Shown here one piece after another: positions 10,670-56,316 of a DNA stretch of 64,000 nucleotides. Every line of letters starts with the position of its first letter. Position 1 is the first letter of the stretch. Position numbers and translations under genes: made by a program. The DNA comes from Candidatus Mycoplasma liparidae (GTDB lineage Bacteria > Bacillota_I > Bacilli_A > Mycoplasmatales > Mycoplasmoidaceae): the NCBI GenBank assembly GCA_009884515.1, contig RHHX01000001.1, positions 254,956 to 318,955 of the forward strand, given 5' to 3'. The notes beneath the pieces are model-generated. The model did not search any database. It was not told where the DNA came from and saw only the letters and a program-made list of their open reading frames with translations.

Positions 10670-11555
10670 AATAACAAAAGCAATAATTCTAGCGGCTGGA
10701 ATTGGATCAAGATTTTTACCTTCTTCAAAAGCAATTCCTAAAGAAATGTTCCCAATAATAGACATTCCAACAATTCAATTAATTGTTGAAGATGCTGTTA
10801 ATTCTGGAATTACAGATATTATTTTTGTGCTTTCTAATTCTAAAAATGCTATTGTTGAACATTTTAACTATAACTATGAATTAGAAGAACGTTTAAAAAT
10901 AAATAATAAAATAGCGGCTTATAAAAAAATAAGAGATGTTGCTGACTTAGCTAGATTTACTTTTGTTAGACAAAAAGAACCATTAGGATTAGGTCATGCT
11001 ATTTTACAGTGTAAACATTTAATCAACAAAGATGAAAAATTTGTTGTTTTATTAGGTGATAATTTTATTAAACCTATTGATAATAATTATGCAACTAAAC
11101 AATGTATTGATGCTAGTTATGAAACTAATGCAACAATCATCGGTGTTCAAGAAGTTACTGATGCAGATGTTCAAAAATTTGGAATAGTAAAACCATTTGA
11201 TAAAAAAATAGTAATTGATCAAAAACCATTTGTAATTGAATCAGTTATTGAAAAACCAAAACTAGCAGATGCTCCTAGTAAATATGCTATTTTAGGAGTT
11301 TATGTATTTGGATTTAATATTTTCAATGAAATTGAAAATATTAAAATTGATGAAAGCAATGAAATTCAATTAACAGATGCTATTTCATCATTAGCTTTAA
11401 AAGAAAAAGTTTACGCTAAAAACTTTATAGGTAAACATTATGATATTGGATCTAAATTAGGATTTGTTAAAGCAACTATTGATATTGCACTTGAAAGTGA
11501 TGAGATTAAAAAAGATGTTTTAGATTACATAAAAAGAATTATTTCCCAGAAATAA
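10656..11555 (+). CDS. galU: UTP-glucose-1-phosphate uridylyltransferase
   Basis: The N-terminal motif is [21 protein letters not shown], followed by [12 protein letters not shown]. Confidence 0.85.
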
Positions 11556-11752
11556 TTCTTTTTGTTAAGATAAATATTCTGATTTTTTCGTTTATTTTAG
11601 CAAAATATTTATTATTGAAATTTGTTCTATGTTTAGTAACAATTAAATTTGTTTTATTAGAAACAGATTGCTTTCCATTTTCAATCATAATTTATACCTC
11701 ACTTAATTAACTTTAATAAAAATTATAACATAATTATCTATGTTATATTTTT

Positions 11753-12130
11753 TTAACTTTTTTTAGTTTTTTTATCTTGGTTTTTAGTTTTTTCTTCTTT
11801 CGAATTCAAACCTTTTAATCCAAGATCATTCAGTTCATTAATAACATCAGGAGTAAATTCACTTAATAAATTTTCAATAGTTTTACTCACATCTTCAAGA
11901 TTTTTTGCACCATCAAACATTTTTTCTAGAACATTTTGAGCATTACCACTTAATTTTTCAATACCACCACTTTTTCCTAAAAAATGTAATTGAGTATTGA
12001 TAGCATTTTCAACATAATTTTCAACAAATTGCTGGAAATCGTCACCTGCTAAAACTCCAAGTTTATTAAATTCTTTTCTAAGAATCTTTAAATTTTCATC
12101 TGATATAGTTAATGTTATTCTTTTTGGCAT
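11753..12130 (-). CDS. Hypothetical protein (N-terminus MPKRITLTISDENLKIL looks ribbon-helix-helix-like)
   Basis: This is an intact 125-aa ORF immediately downstream of the DUF45-like gene on the same strand. Confidence 0.5.
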   Translation of the reverse strand: MPKRITLTISDENLKILRKEFNKLGVLAGDDFQQFVENYVENAINTQLHFLGKSGGIEKLSGNAQNVLEKMFDGAKNLEDVSKTIENLLSEFTPDVINELNDLGLKGLNSKEEKTKNQDKKTKKS

Positions 12131-21448: not shown

Positions 21449-21523
21449 GGCCACATAGCTCAGCGGTAGAGCAACCGGCTGTTAACCGGTTGGTCGTAAG
21501 TTCGATCCTTACTGTGGCCGCCA
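21449..21523 (+). tRNA. tRNA-Asn (GTT)
   Basis: The cloverleaf has acceptor ggccaca/tgtggcc, anticodon loop ct-GTT-aa, T arm gtaag-ttcgatc-cttac and an encoded CCA. Confidence 0.92.
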
Positions 21524-21529
21524 TTTATT

Positions 21530-21606
21530 GGCCCGTTGGTGAAGTGACTCAACACACACGCCTTTCACGCGTGCATTCACGGGTTTGAATCCCGTACGGG
21601 TCACCA
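21530..21606 (+). tRNA. tRNA-Glu (TTC)
   Basis: It has acceptor ggcccgt/acgggtc (one G-U pair), anticodon stem cacgc/gcgtg with loop ct-TTC-ac, and CCA. Confidence 0.9.
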
Positions 21607-21627
21607 TTTAAAACAAACTAAATATAT

Positions 21628-21650
21628 AAGAAAGAAATTACTTTCTTTTT
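21628..21650 (+). other. Terminator-like hairpin inside the tRNA cluster
   Basis: The stem aagaaag / ctttctt is followed by a T run and lies between tRNA-Glu and tRNA-Val. Confidence 0.3.
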
Positions 21651-21652
21651 GT

Positions 21653-21728
21653 GGAGTGTTAGCTCAGTTGGGAGAGCAATTGCCTTACAAGCAATAGGCC
21701 GTGGGTTCGAGCCCCTCACACTCCACCA
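21653..21728 (+). tRNA. tRNA-Val (TAC)
   Basis: It has acceptor ggagtgt/acactcc, anticodon loop ct-TAC-aa and CCA. The T stem has one U-U mismatch. Confidence 0.85.
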
Positions 21729-21732
21729 TTTC

Positions 21733-21807
21733 GCCGTCGTGGCTCAACGGCAGAGCAACTGACTTGTAATCAGTAGGTTGTAGGTTCAACTCCTATCGAC
21801 GGCACCA
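21733..21807 (+). tRNA. tRNA-Thr (TGT)
   Basis: It has acceptor gccgtcg/cgacggc, anticodon loop ct-TGT-aa and CCA. Confidence 0.9.
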
Positions 21808-21830
21808 TTTATAACATTCAATTTATTTGT

Positions 21831-21914
21831 GCACTTGTGGCGGAATGGCAGACGCGCTAGACTTAGGATCTAGTTCCGCGAGGAGTGGGAGTTCAAGTCT
21901 CTTCAAGTGCACCA
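21831..21914 (+). tRNA. tRNA-Leu (TAG), long variable arm
   Basis: It has acceptor gcacttg/caagtgc, anticodon loop ct-TAG-ga, a long variable arm and CCA. Confidence 0.9.
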
Positions 21915-40315: not shown

Positions 40316-40357
40316 AAACTGATCATTTTCCATAATTTGAAAAATGATCAGTTTTTT
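40316..40357 (+). terminator. Rho-independent terminator after apt
   Basis: The stem aaactgatcattttc / gaaaaatgatcagttt is followed by a T run. Confidence 0.8.
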
Positions 40358-40429
40358 ATAATTAAAAGTTTTAATTCTATTTGGTATACTTTATTAAAGT
40401 ATTTAATTTTTTTGAGGTCATTATATAAT

Positions 40430-43400
40430 ATGGAAAATACAAATAAAATCATAACTAGAGAGATAGCAGAGAAAATTCTTAAGAATAATATTGCTAAGGA
40501 AATTCAAGAATCAGATTTATGAGAATATGATGAAATAGCTGATAATGCTTTTTCTAATTTTACTGATCTTATTTCAATTCGAATTGGTGACAATATTAAA
40601 AAAATAGGAGCTGAAGCTTTTAGTTGATGCTCTGAACTTATTTATGTAAAACTTCCTAATAATTTAGAAATTTTAGAACAAAAAGTATTTTCTTTTTGTA
40701 TTAATTTAACAAAAATTATCTTTAGTAAAAATCTTTTAAAAATTGATGCATCTGCTTTTGAAAATTGTGAAAGCTTAATTAACTTAGAATTACCAAATAC
40801 TTTAACTGAAGTTGGTGCAAGTGCTTTTATGAGTTGTTCATCGATTAAAGAGTTTATTTCACCTCAAAGTTTAACTTTAATTGGAGTTAGCGCTTTTTCA
40901 AATTCTATTAAATTAGAAAGATTTACTTTTTCTAACCAAATAAGTGTTATTCCAAGTCGTTTATTTAAAGATTGTATTTCTTTAAATAATGTTTTAATTC
41001 CCACTAGTGTTACATTAGTTGAAAATAATGTTTTTACAGGATGTGAATCTTTAACAGGGATTAATTTTCCAGAATCAATTGCAACTTTTGGAACTTTTAG
41101 TTTCACAGGATGTAAAAGTCTTATTGAAATAAGAATACCAGAACAAGTAACAGATTTACCTAATAGAGCTTTTAAAGACTGTCTTTCATTATTAAAAGTT
41201 CATTTTAATCATAATTTAGTTAGAATGAGTAATTATGCATTTGCTAATTGTCCTTTATTAAAAACAGTTAATTTACCAGAATCATTAGAATATATTGATC
41301 GAAACACTTTTTTAGATTGTGCTAATCTTGAAAGCATTGATATTAAAAATAAAGTAAAAGAAATTGCATATGGTGCTTTTAAAAACTGTTATGCATTAAA
41401 TAATGTTGTTCTTCATGATGGTTTAAAAATAATTGGAGAAGTTAGTTTTTCTAATTGTTATTCACTTAAAAAAATTTATATCCCTGATTCAGTTACTCAA
41501 ATCGGTCAAAGAGCATTTTCAAGATGTAATACTCTTGAAGAAGTTAGATTTTCAAATTCAATTATTTTAATTCCAGCAGGATGTTTTATTGAAAATAAAA
41601 ATTTAAAGAAAATTATTTTACCAGAATCTATTATTAAAATAGATCATTTTGCTTTTGAAAACTGTAAATTAGTTGAAAGTATTGAATTTAATAAAAATCT
41701 TCAAGTAATTGAAAAAGGTGTTTTTCAAGGATTGGGAAAATTAGAAGAAATAACAATTCCGGCATATTTATATAAATTAAACAAATATGCTTTTTACAAT
41801 TGTCCTAATGTTAAAAAAATTACTAGTCCTAATAAATTTTTAGAAACGATTGTTGATTGATTTAATCAAGACTTATCAAAAGTTGTCTTAGTAAACTCTG
41901 ATATTGTTGAAACACCTGAAGTAATTGAAAATATTGAAGAATATTTTGAAATAAATGATCAAGTTATTTTAACTAATGAATTATTAGATATTAATGATTA
42001 TTACAAAGAAGATGTGCCTGAAGTTAATGATGATCATGAATTAATCGTTATGAATGACCTTTCTGAAAAAGAACCAGTTGAATACTTTGAAATAGATGAT
42101 CATGCTATTTTAACTAATGAGTTATTAGATGTTAATGATTATTACAAAGAAGATGCTCCTGAAGTTAATGATGAGCCTGAATTAATCGATATGAATGACC
42201 TTTCTGAAAAAGAACCAGTTGAATACTTTGAAATAGATGATCATGCTATTTTAACTAGTGAATTATTAGATATTAATGATTATTATGAAGAAGATGCTTC
42301 TAAAGAATCTAAAATTGATGACAAACCAACTCAAAATGAAGAATTATTAAATGTTAGTGATATTTTTGAAGAAGAAGATTATAAAGTTACTGATGATCAT
42401 GAATTAATCGATATTAAAGATATGTTTGAAGAAGATAGTAATGGTATTATTAGTGAAACTATTTGATTAGACAATAAAAAAGAAGAGTTATACTCTCAAA
42501 TTCCAATTGATGTTACAAGACAATTTGAAGATAATATTGATGGCGAATACATCAATATTCTAACAAAACAAATAGCTGATAAAATCTTAACAAGAGAATT
42601 TGCTCCCGGAATAAATAGTATTGAACTTAAAGAAAAGAATCTAATGGGTTATACAGATATTTTTGATTCTGCTTTTGAAGGCAATAATGTAATTAATAAA
42701 GTAACTTTTCCTGAAACAATTAAATATATTGGAGCAAATGCTTTTAAAAATTGTGAAAATTTAAGAGTAATTATCATTCCTGAAACTGTAATTGAAATTG
42801 TTCAAACAGCTTTTGATAATTGTAATAATTTAGAAGTGGTAATAGTACCAAAAAAATTCATTAACCAATTTGAAAATGGTAACATCACTATTTCACATGT
42901 TGTACAATTTGAATCAAAATTTAATAAAAAAAGACTTTTAACAAAAGAAATAGCTAATAAATTATTTACTAAAAAAAGAATGATAGCTATTAATCATATT
43001 ATTACAAAAGACAATTTAAAAAATTATCACGGAATTAATGATAATGCTTTTGAAAACTTTACAAAACTAATTGCGATCGATATTCCTGATAATTTTGATA
43101 GAATTGGTGATTCTTCTTTTGAAAACTGTTCATCATTAGTTGATATTAGAATTCCGGAATCAATAACTGAAATCGGTTATCAAGCTTTTAGAGGTTGCAG
43201 TTCACTTCTTGAAATTCAATTACCTAATTCAATCATTAAAATAAAAAGTAGAACATTTAAAGATTGTTCAAAACTTAGACAAATTAACTTTTCAAAAAAA
43301 CTAAGAGAAATTGGTAACAGAGTTTTTGAAGGATGTAATAAATTAGAAAAAATATATTTTCCTGATACAGTTAATTTAATTGGTTATTCAGCTTTTGAAG

Positions 43401-44533
43401 CTTGTAGTAATTTAACTGAAATTAAATTATCTAATTCTTTGCAAATAATTTCTAATTCAACTTTTGCTGAATGTAAAAATTTAACTTATATTAAATTACC
43501 TAATTCAATTATTAAAATTGAAGATAATGCTTTTGAAGCTTGTAGTAAATTATTTGGAATATCAATTCCTGATAAAGTAGTTGAAATCGGTAATAATGTT
43601 TTTGCATTATGTACAAAATTAAATAATATTGATATTAATGATAATCTTGAAAAAATTGGTAATTTTGCTTTTTTAGATTGTAAATCACTTGTTAAAATTG
43701 AATTACCAAAGAAAATAACAACAATTTCAACTGGTTTGTTCCAAAATTGTTCAAAACTTTCTCATGTTTCAATGTCTGAAAATATTACTAAAATTGAAGA
43801 TCTAGCATTTAACTCTTGTAGTTATTTATCAAAAATAACACTTTCAAAAAATATTACATCAATTGGTGAAAGTGCCTTTAAAGATTGCTTTAGATTAGCA
43901 TATATTAATTCACCTGAAGAATTAACAACAATTGCTGATAAAGCATTTAAAAATTGTTCTAAATTAAAAGAAATTACTTTATCTAATAAATTAACTTCAA
44001 TTGGAAATAGAACTTTTAAAGATTGTCTAAGTTTAGCTAAAATTAATATTTCAAGCTTAATAACCGAAATTAAAGATAGTACTTTTGAAGGATGTTCTGA
44101 TCTAACTAAAGTTCATTTTAGTCAAAACAATCTAACTAAAATAGGAAGTTCAGCTTTTTACGGTTGTTCTAAACTATCATCAATACTATTTCCAGATTCA
44201 GTTACTGAAATTAATTCTCAAGCATTAGCAGAATGTGAATCATTAACAAGTGTTAATATTCCAGATAACTTAAAAGTTCTTTCTGAAAAATTATTTAAAA
44301 ATTGTTCAAAATTAAAAACAGTTATTATTCCTAATAATATTTTAATTATTGAAAATAATGTTTTTGAAAACTGTGTTTCATTAAAAGAAATTAAGTTTCC
44401 AAGAGAAATAACGCAACTAGGCGAAAATATTTTTTTAAATGCTATAGCAATTGAAGAAATAATGGTTCCAACGAGTTTAAAAGAATTTAAAAAAAGTTTT
44501 AATACTATTTGAAGTATTATTAAGTGATACTAA
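40430..44533 (+). CDS. Giant BspA-like leucine-rich-repeat (LRR_5-type) protein, 1367 aa, with a central acidic repeat region
   Basis: Track ORFs 40337, 40829, 42014 and 42644 are all in one frame, with gaps checked as TGA only. There are dozens of ~23-aa units of the type IxIPxSVTxIGxxAFxxCxxL. An RBS tgaggt lies upstream. Confidence 0.85.
41939..42300 (+). repeat. 141-nt coding tandem repeat (about 2.6 copies, 47-aa acidic unit)
   Basis: Units start at 41939, 42080 and 42221 and encode EYFEIDDHAILTNELLDVNDYYKEDAPEVNDEPELIDMNDLSEKEPV. Confidence 0.9.
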
Positions 44534-44579: not shown

Positions 44580-44850
44580 GTTTTAAGTCATTATTCGGTT
44601 TAACTAATCATGCTTTTTGAAGAGGAATTTTTGACCTCTTTTTTGCTTTTTCCACTTATATTTATTACTATTTTAGGATTTTTATTAGGATATGATTAAA
44701 TATTAGGTATGGCTTTAAGTATTGGTCAAATAGCTATTGCAATCATTATCTTACCAACTAGTATTTTTGAATTTAAAAATAGACTCTTATGAAGTGAACC
44801 TGTTTCCACACCAATTAAGACCTTATTTTTATGTTAACAATCAGTTTTTA
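44580..44850 (+). pseudogene. Fragment of an ABC-2 permease paralog (compare 58952-59914)
   Basis: It is collinear at roughly three-quarters nt identity with 59000-59290 (estimated by eye), for example aatcatgctttttgaagagga versus aatcattctttttgaagagga. It contains multiple stops. Confidence 0.7.
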
Positions 44851-44857
44851 TTATATT

Positions 44858-44968
44858 ATTGTAATTGAATGTGAAACTAATGATCAATTAGATAATAGTG
44901 AAAAATATTATATAGACTATTATGATTCTTTTAATAATGGTTATAATTTAACAGGTAGAAATAAATAA
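44858..44968 (+). pseudogene. C-terminal fragment of a GIY-YIG-type nuclease gene
   Basis: It reads SEKYYIDYYDSFNNGYNLTGRNK-stop, which resembles the ...YWI..Y.....GYN end of the GIY-YIG domain. There is no N-terminal part. Confidence 0.4.
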
Positions 44969-45240
44969 TTAATAAAATAAAAAAAAACTTTAGTTTTTAC
45001 TACCTTCAATATATGAAATGGATTTTCCTATTTTAGATGTAATTATCAATCAATCTTGATATTAAACATTAGATTTTGCATTAAAAAGTATGATAGATCT
45101 CATAATATAGAAGAAGTTAATAATACTTAACTAAGAAAAATTATTATTATGTATGATTATAAAGTTTATGTTAAGGCATAAAAACAAGTCATTTAATGAT
45201 TTATTCTATTCAGAAATATATTTTAAATAGATTTTGATAT

Positions 45241-45280
45241 AATTAAATTAGCAAATTATTAAAAATTTGCTAATTTAATT
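45241..45280. promoter_or_regulatory. Perfect 16-bp inverted repeat ending 4 nt upstream of a small ORF
   Basis: The arms are aattaaattagcaaat and atttgctaatttaatt, with an 8-nt spacer. Confidence 0.4.
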
Positions 45281-45283
45281 AAT

Positions 45284-45427
45284 ATGAAAGGAATAAATAT
45301 GGATAATAACAATAATAAAGCAAATCAAGTGAATAATAACAACACTGATCAAGCACATAATAATAGTCAATACAACAGCACTAACGATAATAAAGCAAAT
45401 CAAATGAATCCGAATAATAAAAAATAA
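45284..45427 (+). CDS. Small Asn/Gln-rich protein (47 aa)
   Basis: The product is MKGINMDNNNNKANQVNNNNTDQAHNNSQYNSTNDNKANQMNPNNKK. It is framed by a palindrome upstream and a strong terminator downstream. Confidence 0.35.
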   Translation: MKGINMDNNNNKANQVNNNNTDQAHNNSQYNSTNDNKANQMNPNNKK

Positions 45428-45443
45428 TTATTATCTAAGATTG

Positions 45444-45489
45444 ATGTAAAAAAAAGCTTCACTTTTAAAAGTGAAGCTTTTTTTTACAT
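45444..45489. terminator. Bidirectional terminator (19-bp perfect arms)
   Basis: The arms are atgtaaaaaaaagcttcac and gtgaagcttttttttacat. Confidence 0.8.
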
Positions 45490-45519
45490 CATTTTACTAA
45501 TTTTATTGATTACAATTGA

Positions 45520-45987
45520 TTATTTTTTTGTTCTTATAAATTCAATAGGAAAATACAAGCAAATAATTTTTGTTTCGTTATTATCAAATCTTTTTATATT
45601 ATCAGAATTATTTAATGTTTTTAATCTAATAACAACACCTATTAATCTGCTAGTTTTAATATCACATATTCTTCTTTTACAAAAATCTACTCTCTTGTTT
45701 ATAACGGTTTCAGTAGGATAATTATTTTTAACAAATTCTTCAATTTCATTCTTTTTTATAATATATGCTTGTTTATTTTTTATTTCTTTTTCAACACCTA
45801 AATAAAAAATTGAAGAGTTATTAGTTTTATCAAATGCTCTAGATTCAAAATCTCTTTTATTCATATCAGAAAGTTTATTAAATTCCAAAATTATATTTTT
45901 AATAAAATGAGGATCAATTTCAATTAAATCTTTCAAATTTTGCTTCTTTAAAAAATTAAAATTCATAAAAAGTTGGTGTTTATTCAT
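45520..45987 (-). CDS. Unknown 155-aa protein, translationally coupled to the Panacea-domain gene (candidate toxin partner)
   Basis: ATG 45985-45987 lies one nt after the upstream stop (45989-45991). The track ORF's TTG start at 46029 is the alternative. I recognised no motif. Confidence 0.55.
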   Translation of the reverse strand: MNKHQLFMNFNFLKKQNLKDLIEIDPHFIKNIILEFNKLSDMNKRDFESRAFDKTNNSSIFYLGVEKEIKNKQAYIIKKNEIEEFVKNNYPTETVINKRVDFCKRRICDIKTSRLIGVVIRLKTLNNSDNIKRFDNNETKIICLYFPIEFIRTKK

Positions 45988-45988
45988 A

Positions 45989-46459
45989 TTAAATAATAAG
46001 TTTAGATGAAAAAAATTCTTGAATTTCAATTTTATTTATTGAATTAAAGCCAATTGGTTTATTTGAATTATGAATTCAGGGATCTGTTTCATGAGAAAAT
46101 TCTACAAGATTGTATACACCCATTTTTATTAATGCAGTGATTAATTTTTTCAGATATTTAATTTCTTCTTTACTATATGTTTCTTCATCAAAAGAAAAAA
46201 TTTTATTTATTAAAGAAGGGTTATTAATATTATCTCTATATTGCACTTCTACAGGGCCATATTTTCAAGATTCAAATTTTGGATCTCAAAGATCTTTTTT
46301 AAAATTTTTATAAAAACCACCATAAACAAAATATAAAATTTTGTGCATAACTAATTCAGAAATAATTTCTGTTTTTTCATCTAAAGTATTTTTATTTCTA
46401 AAAACATCTATTTCTAAGGCAACATTTTTTATAAAATCAATTAAGTTTGTACTTTTCAT
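45989..46459 (-). CDS. Panacea / DUF4065 (SocA-like) antitoxin-domain protein
   Basis: The frame was checked as open with 3 TGA codons (156 aa). It reads HKILYFVYGGFY...FESWKYGPVEVQYRD...EFSHETDPWI, matching the KLLYxA...AWxYGPV pattern. Confidence 0.6.
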
Positions 46460-46562
46460 GTCAAGCCCTCTTTTAGTAATTATAATATATCAAAAACATA
46501 TACTTATCGTTTAGTAGTAAATATTATGTAAAATCTACTAATTTTCAATTAAAATATCAATT

Positions 46563-47180
46563 TTATTTTAATTCTATTTCATATCTAAGAATAGTTTTAA
46601 GATTCTCTGTTTTAGTTTTTCTAAAATCAGATAAATATATTTCTTGATGAGTTAAATTTTTTATTTTATATTCACTATCTTTAATAAATGCTTTTATTTC
46701 ATCAAGAGTTTTCTTTTCTTCATCAAATGAACCGATATGTAACATTTGAACAACTAAATGTTCGTCTTTAATTTCAAAGTAAAAATTATTTAAATAATCA
46801 AAGTCCATTTTTTCTTTTAATTGATTAAATAAGTCTTGATTAAAGAAATCTGGTTGCCTAATCATAATAGTATAAATTAGTTTCTCTTTATCAATATTTT
46901 CTAATGTTATTTCTTTTTCAGATAAATCTCATTTACCTTCTAAAGGATAGACTACATAATCAGTATAACGATTAGCAATTAGTTCTTTTTTTAAAAGTAA
47001 TATTTTAGCTTTATAAGAGAATTGATAAAGTGCTTGTATTTTAGCTGCAAATTCATCACTATTAGAATTACCTTTACCATTAATACAAAGATAATTCTGC
47101 TTATTAATTTTTATCACACGAGGAACTTTACTTAAGCTATATATTTCTTTTTCAAATTTTCTTCAATTATTTTTTTTCAT
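46563..47180 (-). CDS. GyrI-like small-molecule-binding domain protein
   Basis: Two track ORFs are in the same frame (checked; 205 aa). Motifs are YVVYPLEGKWDL, MLHIGSFDEE and HQEIYLSDFRKTKTENLKTILR. Confidence 0.6.
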
Positions 47181-47280: not shown

Positions 47281-47941
47281 TCATAGGTTAGGCTTGACCA
47301 GATACAGGGCGCTATAAAAATATTGTATGGAATCATAAATTAAAAACCTTCTTCCTTACCAATGAAGGTTTTTTTCATGAAATAAAAAGGTTTTAATACA
47401 TAAAATGCAAGACATAATTAATAGATTAGAAAAAATTTTTGAAAACAGCACAGGAATTCATACTACTTTTTCTAATAAAAATATACTTCATTTAAAATTT
47501 AGTATTAATTCTTTACCACATTGTTTTGGAATACAAGAAATACAAAGATATATAAAACTAAGTCCTGGAGATATTCTAGATAAAATAAAAAAAAATGAAA
47601 TAAATATTGAAAAGATAAGGAAAAACCTAACAATAAAGAAAGATGATAGAGCAACTATATATAATAAAATTGAATGCATCAACGTTTTTTTAAATTTAAA
47701 AATAAATGACATTAATAATATTTTTTTATTTAAGGATATAAATTTTGAAAAATATTCAGTTGACTATGTTCTTTTATATAAAAAATATTTATTATGTTTT
47801 AACTCATCTATTAAAAATTCAAAGTCAGATCCTAATTTTGATAGTGTTTATATTATGTCTATAAGAAAAATTACAAATGACAAACAATTAAAAAATTTTT
47901 TAACAGAAAATAATCATATTACATATATGGAAAAATAAAAT
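47281..47941 (+). repeat. Intact copy of the repeat unit (leader, hairpin and 177-aa ORF) also present, degraded, at 21961-22573
   Basis: See the feature at 21961-22573. The hairpin arms 47342-47351 / 47364-47373 carry a compensatory change relative to 22036-22045 / 22059-22068. Confidence 0.85.
47405..47938 (+). CDS. Hypothetical 177-aa protein (island-associated family)
   Basis: This is an intact ORF in the track. The HLKFSINSLPHCFGIQEI segment vaguely recalls the HLxGL core of PBECR-type nuclease toxin domains, but that is speculative. Confidence 0.55.
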   Translation: MQDIINRLEKIFENSTGIHTTFSNKNILHLKFSINSLPHCFGIQEIQRYIKLSPGDILDKIKKNEINIEKIRKNLTIKKDDRATIYNKIECINVFLNLKINDINNIFLFKDINFEKYSVDYVLLYKKYLLCFNSSIKNSKSDPNFDSVYIMSIRKITNDKQLKNFLTENNHITYMEK

Positions 47942-48124: not shown

Positions 48125-49172
48125 ATGAAATTCGATTCCTATTTAAAAGAAAATTTATTGAAAAATGAAAATGAAGTTTTAGAAAAATCTTCATCGTATT
48201 TTCAAGGTAATTTTTCAAAGTGAAATATTAGTAGATGCAGAATAGATGTTTCCTTCTGACCTATAGTTTTAGCTGAAATTTTAACTAAAAAAAATTTTAA
48301 AACAGAAAACCAAATAGGAGAGTTTTATTTAGCTAAAACTAGAGAAATAGAAAACAAAAATAGGAATTATAAAAATTCTAATCGTATGGATTCTAGTGCT
48401 CTAAAAGCTTGATTTAAAATTACAACACCCAATAAAGAAGATCTTGATTATTTAGGTGAAAAGAATTTTGACGATATTATTTATACTCTTACAGAATACA
48501 TTGATACAGTTATAAAAAAATAAGATTGAAAATAAAAAAGTAGATTCTTGGAATGAGTATATATCCCAATACAGAGAAATAAATTATTTGCTAGCAAATA
48601 GAAGTGATTTTGAATTTGCTGAAAAAATGAGTCAAGTTATTTCAAAAAATACAAAACCGATATCTTGAAAAATAATTGATAATAAAACAAAATTTAAACC
48701 AGTTTCTATTTTAGAATCTAAAATAAATTCACTTAACTTTACTGAAAATAAAGAATCTGATTTAGAAATTATTGGTTATCATGGAGAAGAAATAGCTTTT
48801 TCTTTTTTGAAAGAAAAATATGGCTCTGAAAATGTTAGATGAATATCAAAAGAAAAAAAGTATAGTGATCATGATTTTGAAGTTATGGATCATCAATATA
48901 AAAAATTTATAGAAGTTAAATCATCAAAAACAAAAGAAATGAACAGATTCTTTTTATCAAGAAATGAATTAAATTTTTATGAAAAAAATAAAGAAAATTA
49001 TTGCCTTTTATTTATTTGAAATATTTATGAAAATAGAAAAGAGAATTTAGTTCCTATTTATTTTTTGGAAAAACCAAATATTAAGATTTCAATGGAAAAA
49101 ATAGGACTAAATAACAAATCAAACACTTTCTATATAACTCCATACAACTTTATTAGTCATTTACTTAAATAA
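48125..49172 (+). pseudogene. DUF3883-like (PD-(D/E)XK-fold) protein gene split by a frameshift in an A7 tract
   Basis: ORF1 48125-48523 ends in ...ata aaa aaa taa. ORF2 is open from 48516 to 49172 in the +1 frame. Deleting one A (48514-48520) would fuse them. ORF2 carries IIGYHGEEIAFSFL, YSDHDFEV, FIEVKSSKT and FFLSRNEL. Confidence 0.6.
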
Positions 49173-49230: not shown

Positions 49231-50115
49231 CTAGAAATCAGAAGATGAAGTTCTATAAACACCGTCTAGTGTTTTATCATCCTTATTTTTATAATCTTTT
49301 CATCCATCAGCTGTTGTTTTTCAATTAACTAGTTTTGAAGCAGTTGTTGGATAATCAATAATAATATTTTCTAAAGTTTCTCAATAACCATCTTCACGTT
49401 TAGAAATTTTTTGTAATTTTGCGAATTCTTTTATCCTCTTTTCATTTATTTTTTGAGATTTTTGATCAATACCTTTCCTATTTGATATTAATTCAAAACT
49501 TGGAAAAAAGAGAACCTTTAAGTAAAATAAAAATACCTTGTTGATAAATTAAATTAGTACCTTCATAAGAGAAAACATTATCATCATTTTTAATAGCTTG
49601 CTTTGAAAACAATATAATATTTTTATATTTTAGGAAAATTAAAATTTTATCAATAATTTTAATAATTTCATCGTTTGTATAATCATCAATATAGGGTTCT
49701 TTACTTCACTTATCTTTATTTGTTAAAGAATAAAGTAGAACACTATTATCATCTATAAATAAGTTTATAAAATATCATTCTAAATAATCTATTTTTGTTG
49801 AATCTAATTTATTTGTATTAACAAAATATATTATTCTATTAAATTCCTTTTTTTATCTATATTATGGTTATTACATCTTTGAAAAAGATGTGTACTTTTT
49901 CCAATATATATATCTTTAATTTCATCATTTATTAAAAAGTAGATTCCAGCATTGTTTAATAGGTCAATTTGATTAATTTCTAATGAATTGAATGAATTGT
50001 TTATTATATTTCTTGGCAAATCTACTAAAAATAAACTTTCAAATTCATCAACCTTTAATCCCTGTTTATCATTTTCTTCATAAAAAATTGTTTTTATTCA
50101 ATGTTGTTTTTCCAT
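49231..50115 (-). pseudogene. GIY-YIG nuclease gene broken into several frames
   Basis: The N-terminal ORF 49831-50115 (94 aa) carries GIYFLINDEIKDIYIGKSTHLFQRCNNH and ends at TAA. Downstream sense-strand pieces in other frames end in ...ASKLVNWKTTADGWKDYKNKDDKTLDGVY. Confidence 0.6.
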
Positions 50116-50206: not shown

Positions 50207-50551
50207 TTACTGCTCATCATATGCTCAATGTCATTCTTCATCAATCTTTATTTTCATTCTTCCAATGTATGAACCTTCACGTTTATGAATTTTTTTTATA
50301 GCAAATGTAATAGAATTAACATTACCATTTAATTTGTTTCCTTTTTCTTGATTTGAAACAAAAGATAAGACTTGGTAATTATTTAAATGACTGATACCTT
50401 TTAAAGCCGAAGGTCAAATATGATCAATATTTCAAGACCCTTTTGAATCACCTTTTTGATAGTTATCATAATGAACAACTCGACCAAACGGATCTATACC
50501 ATTTTTTTTCTTACCAAAATTTTTATTTCAGACATAATCTTTTGTATCCAT
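50207..50551 (-). CDS. Small stand-alone HNH endonuclease (114 aa)
   Basis: The frame was checked as open with 5 TGA codons. It reads SWNIDHIWPSALKGISHLNNYQVLSFVSNQEKGNK. Confidence 0.65.
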
Positions 50552-51343: not shown

Positions 51344-53946
51344 ATGAAAAAGAGTTTTTTATCAATATTATTTACATTAGGAAGTATAGTTACTCCGATT
51401 CTATTAACCGGTACTTTATCAAATAATTTTAATGTAGTTTTAAATCAAGATACTTTATTAAATACAAATAAAAACCAGAATATTAATCAAAGTTCAATTT
51501 TTACTAAAGAAATGGCTGATACACTTGTTGCTCAAAAAGAAAATGATTTTGGTTTAAATTGAGAAGGTAATTTAAATTCTGATGATTTTGATGAAATAAC
51601 TTCAATAGCTCCTAATGCTTTTAGATTTAATACTAAAATAATTAGTGTTAGATTACCATATTCAGTTAAAATAATTGGAACTAATGCCTTTGCTAGCGCT
51701 ACTAATTTAACTTATATTCAAGCTCTTGGTGCAATAGATATTGGTGATAATGCTTTTCCTTGAATGAATCTTGAAGAATCCATTCCTAAATATAAAGTTT
51801 TGCTTACTTTTAGTAATGAATTAGTTCCAACAAATATTGATACAAATACTAAATTAATAGCATTACTTAGTCAATGAGGAATTGAAAATTATTCCTTTGT
51901 TAAATTTCATCAACCTAAAATAAATGTTGAAAAAATTGTTGATAATAATTTTATTAAAAATTTAATTAGATATAAAAAGCTAGATCTTGATATATCACCT
52001 TGGAATGGCACTTTATTTGAAAGTGATTTTTACAATGCAATAAGTATTGCACCCGCTGTTTTTAAGGATAATACCGAAATAATTAGTGTTAGATTACCAG
52101 ATTCAATTAAAATAATTGGAGCTGATGCCTTTAGTGGATGTACTAATTTAACTCATATTTGAGCATTTGGTGCAAGAAGTATTAGAACTAATGCTTTTTT
52201 AATACACCAGCAATAAATGGAAAAGGAACTAATAAAATTATTTTATCAATAACAGATACAATAACAGATGAACAATTACCAATATTAATGAAAAATTGAG
52301 GATTAACTACAAATCAAATAAATGCTAATGTTGTTAGTTTGTTTGAACCTCCATTAGCTCCAACAATTGCTGCTGATCAAGTTATTAGTTCTTTATTTGT
52401 TAGTAAATTAATTAATTTTAAAGAAATAACATCATCAACTACTTGAGATGGAATTTTAACTGCTAATGATTTTGAAAATGCAAGAACTATTGAACCAGGT
52501 GCTTTTTTTGATCAAAAATCTATTATTTCAATTGCTTTGCCAACAACAGTTATTACGATTGGAGATAATGCTTTTAGTGGAGTTAGTAATTTAACTGCTG
52601 TTTCAGCATTTGGTGCAACAACTATTAAACCTGATGCTTTTTTAAATACTAATTTAGAAGTTAAAAGCCTAAATTTAACTTATTCAAATGAATTATTTGA
52701 TTCTTGAAAAACATGAGGAATGAATCCTGATCCTACTAATTGAAAAAAAATAAAATGAATCAATCCCCCTACAATTAAACCATCAGTAACTAGTAAAATA
52801 ATAACAAGTGATTTTTTAATTAACCTAGTTAGATATAAAGAATTTTATAGTAATGGTAATGGTTGGAATGGCATTATTAATAGTAGTGATTTAATAAATG
52901 CAACAAGTATATCTACTGCAGCATTTGATATAACTGGAGCACCTAATAATGCTTTAAAAAATAAAATTTTAGAAGTTAATCTACCTGATACTTTTGTTAG
53001 TTTAGAACCTAATGCTTTTTCTGGAACTCTTAGATTAAAAAAATTAACAGCTTTATCAGTTCATACAATTGATAATAATGCTTTTGCTTCAGCTCTTGGT
53101 TTAATTGAAGCTGGAGGAGAAATTAATTTGACTTTTTCTTTAAAGAAAATAGTTGATTTAAATATAACTGGTTTAATTAATGATAAAATAGTAACAAACA
53201 ATACTACTTTGAATAGATTAATTGCAAGTTGAGGTGTTATTCCCCAAAATGTAACAAATACTAAATTTAGTTTATTACCAACTAATGGAATTGTCGATAG
53301 CACTTTTGTTAATTTATTAATTTTTAAAAAGAGTATTGAAACTGCTTTTTGAGATAATACTTTAGTTACTACTGATTTTATTGGTGCAACTACTATTGCT
53401 GATAATGCTTTTACAGTTATTCCTTATCTACTTAATTCAAAAACAGTTACCATAATAACTTCAATTAGTTTACCAACAACAGTTAAAACAATTGGCGATA
53501 ATGCTTTTAGTGGAGCTAGCGCTTTAACTACTTTAACTGCTTATGGCATAACGAGTATTGGAACTAATGCTTTTAAAGGTTTATTAAATATCAGAGATGA
53601 TGGTATTAAATTAACATCAAGTGCAAACATATCAATTGATAAAGCTGAAAGTTGAGGGACTACTGCTAATAAATTAGATATTTTTAATATTCCTCCAGTT
53701 ACAACAGAAGATATTGATCAAAATAATTTAATCATTATTATAGCACTTAGTAGCGTTGCTGTTTTATTAATAGGATTAGCTATTACAGGGTTTATTTATT
53801 ATCATAGAAAATTAAATAGTAATGGTATTTCAGATAATCCATCTGGAATAAAAAATAAATCTAGAGATTTAAAAGAAAATAAAACTACAAAACCAAAGGA
53901 TGATGAAGCATCTAAACCTAATAATAAAAAAGAATCACCACTTTAA
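51344..53946 (+). pseudogene. BspA-like LRR surface protein gene (N-terminal signal/TM and C-terminal TM anchor) with a single frameshift in a T tract
   Basis: Frame 2 is open from 51344 to TAA 52214. Frame 1 is then open from 52201 to TAA 53944-53946; both were checked. The junction is gct-tttttt-aat (T6 at 52195-52200), and one extra T restores a single ~866-aa ORF. Confidence 0.8.
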
Positions 53947-53989
53947 TAATTAAAATATATAAATAAAAAACTATAAGAAAGACTAATAA

Positions 53990-55069
53990 ATGAAAAAAAT
54001 ATCAAAAACACTCACTTTATCAACATTATTTATATTAAGCAGCATAACTGCTTCCATTTTATTATTCATTACTTTATCAAGTAATTTTTATTTAACTTCA
54101 AATAAAAACACTTCATTAAATACAAGTCAAAAAAATAATCATAATCTAAGAACTAATTTTACTAAGGAAATGGCTGATGCAATTATTATTCAAAAAGAAT
54201 TAGATATGAACTGAGATGGTAGTTTAGTTGAAGCTGATTTTATAAATGTAACTAGTATTGCTGCTAGTGCTTTTGAAAGTAATACTAAGATCACTTCAAT
54301 TAGTTTACCAACAACAGTTAAAACAATTGGAACTAATGCTTTTGCTAATGCTACTAATTTAATTACAATAACAACTTATGGAGCAACAATTATTTGACGA
54401 GATGCTTTTAATAATCTTAATAATCTCAATACCTTAAACTTAACTTATTCCGCTCCTCTATTTGATTCTTGAAAAACATGAACAAGTATTGGTGATTATC
54501 CTACTAATTGAAAAAAAATAAAATGAATTAATCCGCCCACTAAACCAGTATCTAATCTAACAATAACTAGTGATTTTATATTTGACTTAATTAGATATAA
54601 AGAATTTAATAATAGTAATGTTTGGAATGGTGTTTTAGTTGAGGCTGATTTTATAAATACAACTAGTGTTGCTAATGGCGCTTTTTGAAATAATATTAAA
54701 ATTACTTCAATTACTTTACCAGATACAGTTATTAGTATTGGAACCAATGCTTTTAATGGAGCTATAAATTTAAATACTGTTTCAGCACTTGGTGCAACAA
54801 ATATTGGAACCAATGCTTTTGCTAAAACAATATCTTTAATTCCTAAAGGAATTAAATTAACATCAAGTGTTAATATATCTCCTAATAATGCTAAAAGTTG
54901 AGGAATTCATTTTGATAAATTAGATATCCAAATGAATACTCTTTTACCAGTAGTTAATGATGAGCAAATTGATTTAATTATTATCATATCAATTTCTATT
55001 GTTGTTGCTTTACTACTTGTGTTGAATATTGGCGGATTTATTTATTATCGTAAAAATATATCTAAATAA
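53990..55069 (+). CDS. BspA-like LRR surface protein, shorter paralog (359 aa) with a C-terminal TM anchor
   Basis: It shares modules with the preceding gene, for example LNLTYS..LFDSWKTW...PTNWKKIKWINPP and DFI..L.RYKEF. I did not re-verify the whole frame codon by codon. Confidence 0.75.
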
Positions 55070-55230
55070 CAAAATTCAGATATATATATATAATAATCAA
55101 TCACTGTAAATATTTATAAAAAAATATTTTATCAATCAACTATATCATATAAAGTAATAAAGTTATTATTGAAAATGAAAATTTAATTGATTTTATAAAC
55201 GAGGTTTCTTTAGAAATAAAATTTTTAATA

Positions 55231-56316
55231 ATGAAGAAAAATAAAAGTGATGAAATTATTTCTGAATTAGTTGTGCATAATATTTTATATATCGCACTGT
55301 TTATAAAAATTTTTAAAAGTATTCTAAGTAAATCTGCGGATTTAATATTTGTTGATCTGCCATATAATATGACATTAGATAAAATATTAAAAAGACCAAA
55401 CGGCGATGTTTTTAGTGGAATGAATGATGAATGAGATAAATATGAGTCATTAGAATCTTATGATAAAGAATGCTCAATTTGATTAAAAGAATCACTAAGA
55501 ATATTAAAAGATAATGGGAGTTTATGAGTAATAGGTTCGTTTCAAAATATTCATAGATTAGGTTATTTACTTCAGGATTTAGGATGTTGAATTATTAATG
55601 AAATAGTTTAAGAAAAAAGTAACCCTGTTCCTAATTTTGCTGGGACAAGATTTACTAATAGTCAAGAAACATTATTGTGAGTTGTTAAAAATAAGAAAAG
55701 TAAATTTACATTCATTTATAAAACTATAAAACATATTAATGGTGGAAAACAAATGAAATCTATTTGAAGATTTTCTATCGCTGCAGGTAATGAGAGATTA
55801 AAAGATGAAAACGGTATAAAAATTCATTCAAGCACTATTAGAAGGAATAATATTAGCAAGCACAAAGCTACAATGATATAGTTTTAGACTCTTTTAGTGG
55901 AACAGGAACAACTTGCTCACGCTTCTAAATTATGAGGCAGAAGATTTATTGGAATTGAAAAAGATCAAAAATATTTTGAAAGTTCATTAAAAAGGGTGAA
56001 TTCAGTAAAAGAAAACATAGAAAATGACTGTTTAAAATTTGCTGTTTTAGATAAAAACCCCGAACCTGTTTCATTTAAGGATTTGATGAAAAACGGAATT
56101 CTAAAAGAAAATGAACAAATAATAATTAAAGATGAAATTTATAGTTTTAATAATGATGCAACCATAACTTATAATCAAGCTAATCTCTCACTAAATCAAT
56201 TATGTAAAATAATTTTTAAAAAATCAACAAACGCTTGAACAAATATAAACTTGCTTAATGGTGAAAATATAGATTCTTTGAGAGGGAAATATAGAGATAA
56301 AGTTTTATCTTTATAA
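55231..56316 (+). pseudogene. Dead CcrM/M.HinfI-like (beta-class, N6-adenine) DNA methyltransferase gene
   Basis: Motif IV is ADLIFVDLPYNM, followed by NGSLWVIGSFQNIHRLG. TAA at 55609-55611 replaces the conserved Trp in NEIV-stop-EKSNPVPNF. The region downstream of IKIHS, where this family carries its conserved motif, is scrambled by several frameshifts. The C-terminal part GRRFIGIEKDQKYF survives. Confidence 0.75.

Follow-up and report, generated by a model that had tools for sequence, protein, structure and literature searches.

A Panacea-domain gene coupled to a partner of an undescribed protein family: a candidate PanAT-type toxin-antitoxin pair in an uncultured Mollicute

In a 64,000-nucleotide stretch of Candidatus Mycoplasma liparidae DNA (contig RHHX01000001.1, called the window below), two adjacent genes on the minus strand encode a 156-amino-acid protein with a Panacea domain, PanA, and a 155-amino-acid protein, referred to here as the partner. 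We regard the pair as a credible PanAT-type candidate that had not been catalogued before and whose effector belongs to a new family. By analogy with characterised PanAT systems, it is probably a type II toxin-antitoxin (TA) module of an uncultured Mollicute, in which the partner is the candidate toxin. The features under discussion are listed here, in window coordinates.

45989..46459, minus strand: panA, putative antitoxin, 156-aa standalone Panacea (DUF4065/SocA-like) protein (table-4 open reading frame, PF13274, phrog_1281, GPV motif)
45520..45987, minus strand: partner gene (candidate panT), putative toxin of 155 aa, basic, soluble, undescribed family (open reading frame, family searches)
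45985..45991, minus strand: stop/start junction TAA-T-ATG with a 1-nt spacer (sequence)
46460..46562, minus strand: putative promoter/leader region of the operon, 103 nt (consensus matches)
45442..45491, unstranded: bidirectional intrinsic terminator, perfect 25+25-nt palindrome (folding)

The GC content of the whole window is about 22%, and genetic code 4, in which TGA is read as tryptophan, was applied to it and to all fetched loci. With translation table 11 the upstream gene is broken at three TGA codons. With table 4, a single open reading frame (ORF) of 156 aa is obtained, and it contains the strings HKILYFVYGGFY, FESWKYGPVEVQYRD and SHETDPW that an earlier, sequence-only reading of the window had quoted. 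That reading had also assigned a DUF4065/Panacea domain to the protein, and the profile search bore this out: PanA matched the Pfam family SocA_Panacea (PF13274) with 44.6 bits, above the gathering score of 25.7 (E=3.2e-11), over residues 40-128 of the protein and positions 3-112 of the 113 in the profile. PanA also matched phrog_1281 (E=2e-19), and the NCBIfam SocA equivalog NF047745 (SocA_antitoxin) scored 48.6 bits on it, relative to a cut-off of 190. The GPV motif, described as the Panacea signature (beta2) and as required for neutralisation (PMC8832971), is found at residues 68-70, within WKYGPVEVQY (65-74), and G68, P69, V70 and the flanking residues are invariant across the clade alignment. 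No extra N-terminal or neutralisation domain is present in PanA, which makes it a protein of the standalone ('noNTD') type. No solved structure related to the PanA clade was detectable by sequence.

The arrangement of the two genes is tight. The panA stop codon TAA occupies 45991..45989, a single base follows at 45988, and the partner ATG lies at 45987..45985, one nucleotide after the stop, as had been read initially. The partner ORF starts MNKHQLFMNFNFLKKQNLKDLIEIDPHF and ends at 45520. We retained this ATG as the start, rather than an in-frame TTG at 46029 upstream of it, because the homologues begin at the M-x-KHQLF position. No Shine-Dalgarno (SD) sequence precedes the partner ATG in the junction, and translational coupling is therefore the natural reading; in all intact homologous pairs, the spacing at the junction remains between -1 and +9 nt. 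Ahead of panA, an SD sequence AGAGGG was found at 46471..46466 and a -10 element TATAAT at 46484..46479, with a candidate alternative promoter TTGAAA-16-TAATAT at 46548..46521 in the consensus scan. This -10 element and SD are common to the aligned loci L001 and L002 (numbers of this kind designate the fetched loci), and are to be taken as putative, being consensus matches only. No conserved palindrome of the operator kind stood out when the regions upstream of panA were aligned.

The sequence-only reading also described the pair as bracketed by a strong bidirectional terminator. This proved correct on the 3′ side, where the palindrome at 45442-45491, 29 nt past the partner stop, has a GC-rich core with A8/T8 flanks and folds with energies of -30.6 and -31.7 kcal/mol on the two strands (z of -10.5 and -10.9; none of 200 shuffles was as stable). 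It closes both the panA-partner operon and a convergent small ORF at 45284..45427(+). The claim did not hold on the 5′ side, where nothing comparable was found and the putative promoter region, 103 nt long, reaches from panA to a GyrI-like gene.

The partner belongs to a small and narrowly distributed family. All 10 family members were scanned against Pfam, NCBIfam, PADLOC and PHROGs without any match, and sequence and profile searches of the PDB with the partner were empty. An exhaustive phmmer search over 1.84 billion representative proteins returned 3 clusters, with identities of 99, 62 and 44%, and a profile search over 5.8 billion clusters returned 11. All 11 clusters come from uncultured Mollicutes, in metagenome-assembled genomes (MAGs) or metagenomes, and are either unnamed or annotated as "hypothetical protein [Malacoplasma sp.]". 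Distant members, of 172-175 aa, share the motifs of the family (BLASTP E=6e-7, in a single comparison). When genome contigs were scanned with a 4-member partner alignment, the sole match was an 'uncultured Ureaplasma sp.' MAG, and the scan of viral contigs found nothing. The claim that the 155-aa protein is undescribed was thus upheld in each of these libraries, as well as in a comparison with the largest published PanT cluster, T1, reported at the end of this text. As far as could be tested, the absence of this family from the libraries and from the published catalogue appears credible; its absence from the catalogue can be understood as the family occurs only in MAGs and metagenomes and the catalogue is RefSeq-based.

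Seven residues of the partner are invariant (N57, F61, Y62, E66, N88, K104 and R114), and G64, Y90, P147-I148 and E149 are nearly so. The protein is strongly basic, with an isoelectric point (pI) of 9.6 (9.1-9.6 in the family); the pI of PanA is 6.3 (5.5-6.3 in its clade, acidic to neutral). A basic partner next to an acidic PanA is the charge pattern seen in classical type II pairs. Purifying selection acts on both genes, with ratios of non-synonymous to synonymous substitution rates (dN/dS) of 0.2-0.5 for panA and 0.35-0.63 for the partner, the latter being more relaxed. We considered whether the partner might be a membrane toxin and rejected this, as the protein is hydrophilic and basic, has no transmembrane segment, and reaches a maximal 19-residue Kyte-Doolittle mean of 0.92.

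An AlphaFold2 model of the partner was built on a 10-sequence alignment. It reached a pLDDT of 83.9 and a pTM of 0.81, with 4 of the 5 models agreeing in confidence, and superseded an earlier run on 4 sequences (pLDDT 66). The predicted topology consists of a short N-terminal strand, five helices and three long antiparallel strands; the loop at 126-136 is variable and modelled with low confidence. Foldseek searches of the PDB and BFVD with this model returned nothing at E <= 0.001; the best PDB match had E=0.67 and a TM-score of at most 0.25, and the best BFVD match E=0.014 and a TM-score of 0.29. Among the toxin folds and domains considered for the partner, RelE/ParE, MqsR, MazF, Fic, ART and toxSAS were set aside, no sequence or fold similarity to any of them being detected. 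The model thus raises the possibility of a new fold, and we leave it at that because few sequences underlie the prediction and the fold search covered the PDB and BFVD.

We then asked how constant the association of the two genes is. The fetched loci were rescanned with table-4 ORFs and hidden Markov models (HMMs) of the PanA and partner families. Intact pairs were present at 9 distinct loci (the window, L001 (=L019), L002, L003, L007/8, L009, L011, L017/18 and L043; PanA is cut by the contig edge in L017/18 and L043), whose sources include an 'uncultured Ureaplasma sp.' MAG and Malacoplasma sp. MAGs, and the partner identities among them range between 99% and about 20%. Wherever a partner homologue has upstream sequence on its contig, it adjoins PanA, in a sample that is small (about 11 clusters). 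Recurrent adjacency to Panacea genes, which the sequence-only reading had singled out as a check, was therefore found wherever the contig extends far enough. No intact partner lacking PanA was seen among the fetched loci, of which L010 starts at a contig edge.

The pair sits in at least 6 genomic contexts, the flanks being different in the window, L001, L003, L007, L011, L013/15 and L017. Flanking genes are dnaE, an epimerase gene and lspA in L001, glycerol catabolism genes in L007, and the arc operon and clpB in L013-16. In the window, the pair has the GyrI-like gene upstream and, further downstream, past small ORFs and the terminator, a gene for a leucine-rich-repeat (LRR) protein. The GyrI-like gene (46563..47180, minus strand; PF06445, E=5e-9), directly upstream of panA, encodes a putative small-molecule-binding protein. 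It adjoins the pair only in the window and L002, lies 3 kb downstream in L001 (the 'uncultured Ureaplasma sp.' MAG; 11247..11840), and was found in none of the other loci; being so variably placed, it is not a conserved third component.

Three lineages have the pair in decayed form. Both genes are truncated in L012. In L015/16, PanA has a frameshift in an A-run and the partner a TAG nonsense codon, while L013/14 have the same PanA frameshift together with further frameshifts in both genes. The corresponding segments of L013 (4486..5517) and L015 (4278..5309) come from strains that are 98.8% identical, which have the PanA frameshift, in an A7 run, in common and differ in their partner lesions, namely a TAG nonsense codon in L015 and two frameshifts in L013. 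An intact orphan PanA, 66% identical to that of the window and with an 11-aa insertion, was observed in one lineage, L004-6 (L004 6001..6504). In L004 it is followed by about 580 nt of non-coding sequence and sits between mraZ/rsmH-side genes and ftsH; a partner relic was searched for downstream of it, and none was found. Finally, the window itself holds an ORF at 55153..55608(+) whose first ~50 aa match the N-terminus of the PanA family (NLIDFINEVSLEI...ISELVVHNILY; HMM E ~1e-6), and which continues into an N6_N4 DNA methyltransferase (PF01555, E=5.9e-14, DLPYN motif). The methyltransferase frame 3′ of it, to ~56400, holds in-frame stops, and the ORF looks like what is left of a second panA copy, fused to a restriction-modification methylase that is itself decaying.

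The pattern of decay, namely doubly disrupted pairs, an orphan PanA and the PanA relic at 55153, and never an orphan intact partner, speaks for a toxin-antitoxin module, as an asymmetry limited to orphan PanA is expected if the partner is harmful alone. In such a module, one promoter would give a bicistronic mRNA, panA would be translated from its own SD, and the partner would be made by termination-reinitiation, tying synthesis of the toxin to that of the antitoxin. The partner would be the toxin, probably an enzyme or a nucleic-acid-directed inhibitor, with an active surface that may be formed by the invariant N57, Y62, E66, N88, K104 and R114 and the near-invariant E149. PanA would neutralise it by direct binding, as other standalone PanAs do, and loss or inactivation of PanA would set the toxin free. 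We infer the toxicity of the partner and its direct neutralisation from published work: in standalone Panacea antitoxins the domain itself directly neutralises (PMC10440598), and PanA-PanT complexes have been pulled down, neutralisation being independent of ClpXP or Lon (PMC8832971). As to the cellular target, RNA or translation is our best guess, offered with low confidence, because the partner is soluble and basic and has a conserved E/K/R/Y/N set on and around a β-sheet.

Several points weigh against a toxin-antitoxin pair. Eight of the PanT candidates tested in E. coli, about a third, were non-toxic, and about half of Panacea proteins are found outside TA-like loci (PMC8832971). The pair contains no DNA-binding domain, which leaves autoregulation unexplained. 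PanA is better conserved than the partner (82 versus 62%, and 64 versus 45% identity), the reverse of the common trend in TA pairs. If the frameshift shared by L013 and L015 is ancestral, an intact partner was for some time accompanied by a damaged PanA; the two separate losses of the partner could otherwise be compensation for PanA damage, or neutral decay. Part of the conserved adjacency reflects shared ancestry, because all members belong to one narrow AT-rich Mollicute group. Last, the structural model of the partner is built on only 10 sequences.

Some of these observations would also fit a conserved two-gene module of another kind, in which the Panacea protein has a different task, for instance sensing or Mollicute-specific housekeeping, and the partner, itself non-toxic, serves it as cofactor, substrate or regulator. 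The frequency of Panacea proteins outside TA-like loci, the non-toxic PanT candidates (the T1 member of phage Emek is one of them), the better conservation of PanA, and the shared PanA frameshift, which may have been tolerated beside an initially intact partner, all go in this direction, as does the lack of a recognisable toxin domain or fold in the partner. Yet exclusive adjacency, 1-nt coupling, the charge pattern, patchy distribution over differing contexts, joint decay and the orphan-PanA-only asymmetry are typical of TA pairs, and neither protein shows a housekeeping function or wider conservation; we therefore consider a non-toxic module unlikely. A primary role in abortive infection, against phages or mobile elements, with PanA as a sensor releasing the partner as effector on infection, in place of an addiction or stress module, would be compatible with a TA architecture. 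The NetFlax authors see in Panacea a hypothetical sensor and tie TAs to defence systems (PMC10440598), the window has neighbours of defence or mobile type (the NOV_C/TmtA-like gene at 48588..49172, HNH/GIY-YIG fragments and the methyltransferase-PanA relic at 55153), and PanA matches phage protein families. However, neither protein matches PADLOC, the pair was absent from the viral-contig scan, elsewhere it is found among housekeeping genes (dnaE/lspA, glycerol catabolism, arc operon/clpB), and it comes without a known phage trigger. Such a primary role seems to us quite improbable.

We give little credence to a type VI mechanism of the SocAB kind, in which PanA would be a proteolytic adaptor delivering the partner to a protease. 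The weak SocA_antitoxin match of PanA (48.6 bits) can be quoted in its favour, but it is far under the equivalog cut-off, and the partner is not SocB-like. Mollicutes are generally devoid of ClpXP, which makes a ClpXP-dependent mechanism unlikely there. SocA, the first characterised Panacea protein, does act in this way with ClpXP, while the PanAs that were assayed neutralise without ClpXP or Lon and form complexes (PMC8832971). There remains the chance that adjacency is fortuitous or that the 155-aa ORF is not a gene. Spurious ORFs of some length arise in AT-rich genomes, and the protein collection contains no exact copy of the 155-aa sequence. Nevertheless, homologues at 20-27% identity keep the frame, the motifs and the place beside PanA, the dN/dS of the partner is below 1 and its AlphaFold2 model is confident; an overlapping ORF on the opposite strand, at 45506..45721, has no homologue, selection or model support of this kind. 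Alignment, dN/dS and linkage effectively refute this last explanation. The toxin-antitoxin module thus remains the reading that we prefer, and the suggestion of the sequence-only reading, that the 155-aa protein may be an undescribed PanT-type toxin, stands as a well-supported candidate.

Dozens of unrelated toxins are known to be paired with Panacea antitoxins, and any further partner family is a potential new mechanism of growth inhibition. The partner described here has no relatives beyond a few uncultured Mollicutes and no fold neighbour, and could therefore reveal a new toxic activity. If the pair is a TA system, it is a module from very small genomes, where such systems are sparsely documented. 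A bolder proposal would be that the partner founds a new toxin family, with a fold unlike solved structures and predicted viral structures, confined to host-associated minimal-genome Mollicutes, and acting by a new TA mechanism. We find this rather unlikely; if true, Panacea antitoxins would have recruited effectors invented within Mollicutes, and this would be a rare functional TA system in near-minimal genomes. On the practical side, expression in E. coli requires no change to the partner gene, which is free of TGA codons, and the recoding of three codons in panA. Should the partner turn out to be non-toxic, it would add to a sizeable group of conserved genes linked to Panacea, an outcome of relevance to the idea that Panacea senses and does not only neutralise.

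The surroundings of the pair in the window are as follows. The convergent ORF that shares the terminator at 45442-45491 (45284..45427, plus strand) encodes a 47-aa Asn-rich peptide, MKGINMDNNNNKANQVNNNNTDQAHNNSQYNSTNDNKANQMNPNNKK, and may be a small gene; a second hairpin at 45240-45281 (-17.5 kcal/mol, z of -6.2) ends 2 nt before its ATG. On the other side, a 194-aa protein encoded at 48588..49172(+) matches NOV_C (PF13020, E=9e-15) and the C-terminus of the PADLOC TmtA models (E=5e-17), and may represent a free-standing, nuclease-like piece of a defence protein. Two ORFs of no assigned role lie ahead of it, 47405..47938 (phrog_3446, E=6e-7) and 48125..48523. Short GIY-YIG/HNH endonuclease-like ORFs or fragments were found at 49831..50115(-), 50207..50551(-) and 44831..44968(+) (PF01541, E=1e-4; HNH_4, E=0.008). 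Taken together, this suggests that the 44.7-50.6 kb region is a variable island of defence and mobile-element remnants. Further out are a very large BspA-like LRR protein of 1398 aa with internal acidic repeats (40337..44533, plus strand) and a run of paralogous signal-peptide/LRR-type surface proteins (51344..55069, plus strand); proteins of these kinds are typical of the variable surface antigens found in host-associated Mollicutes. At 21449..21914(+) lies a cluster of five tRNA genes (Asn-GTT, Glu-TTC, Val-TAC, Thr-TGT and Leu-TAG), and no rRNA was found within the 64 kb.

We finally compared the pair with known systems. With SocAB of Caulobacter crescentus (type VI), it has in common an antitoxin carrying the same domain, and it differs by the equivalog score reported above (48.6 versus 190 bits) and by a partner unrelated to SocB. 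With the RelE/ParE/MqsR mRNA interferases, the partner shares a small, basic and cytosolic character, a predicted succession of helices and a three-stranded antiparallel sheet, and K, R, E and Y residues conserved at or close to the strands; for these reasons an RNase-like activity is our low-confidence guess. At 155 aa and with five helices it is considerably larger than typical RelE-type toxins, and has no PDB, Pfam or Foldseek match.

The Mollicute entries of the published catalogue belong to T1 (Mycoplasma, Ureaplasma, Spiroplasma) and T22 (Phytoplasma) (PMC8832971). T1 is the largest published PanT cluster and a predicted mRNase; it includes proteins of Ureaplasma urealyticum, U. parvum, the Mycoplasma mycoides group, Spiroplasma citri and Salmonella phage Emek (YP_006560566.1), and in E. 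coli the member from C. cadaveris proved toxic, that from phage Emek non-toxic (PMC8832971). As in the window, a standalone PanA lies upstream of a small hypothetical protein (gaps of -62 to ~100 nt in T1), also in Mollicutes. Our comparison set was made up of the Emek protein, which Dataset S1 places in T1, the protein paired with the PanA of Legionella adelaidensis (a PanA that the catalogue lists, under an older accession, beside a T1 toxin), and homologues of these from P. aeruginosa and Pontibacter, picked up by similarity and lying outside the catalogue. Membership of the partner in T1 was rejected within this set, which leaves the Mollicute T1 and Phytoplasma T22 members outside the comparison: the hhalign probability was 0.08% with a 2-member profile and 0.07% with a 4-member one, HMM scores of T1 versus the partner were at or below ~3.5 bits, and the partner lacks T1 motifs such as K-P-x-F-S, S-Q-x-T-W and W-L-D-x-x-F-x-L-Y-x-H. 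An attempt to enlarge the T1 profile from viral contigs yielded only near-identical Emek-type copies. The Mollicute T1/T22 proteins are the main residual uncertainty on novelty; they were not among the phmmer matches of the partner over all 1.84 billion representatives. The downstream partners of other PanA homologues (on a Legionella plasmid, in the Streptococcus satellite phage Javan54, in Brochothrix phage BL3 and in Salmonella phage Emek) were also considered and proved unrelated to the partner of the window.

The closest parallel is with PanAT systems at large (Kurata et al. 2022, PMC8832971; NetFlax, Ernits et al. 2023, PMC10440598), of which 1,268 pairs in 88 toxin clusters were catalogued, on the in-silico criteria of genes no more than 100 nt apart, presence in at least 2 species and no operon longer than three genes (PMC8832971). 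The pair differs from them by a partner not detectably related to any family of the libraries searched and restricted to MAGs and metagenomes of uncultured Mollicutes, and by a PanA that evolves more slowly than the partner. It agrees with all three criteria, having a 1-nt gap, several species and varied flanks, and satisfies the reciprocity filter of that work in spirit. It further shares with PanAT systems the Panacea domain, the GPV motif, the noNTD type, the antitoxin-toxin gene order, and a two-gene architecture that is kept across species and varying contexts, and its partner is devoid of known domains, like 41 of the 88 published toxin clusters (PMC8832971).

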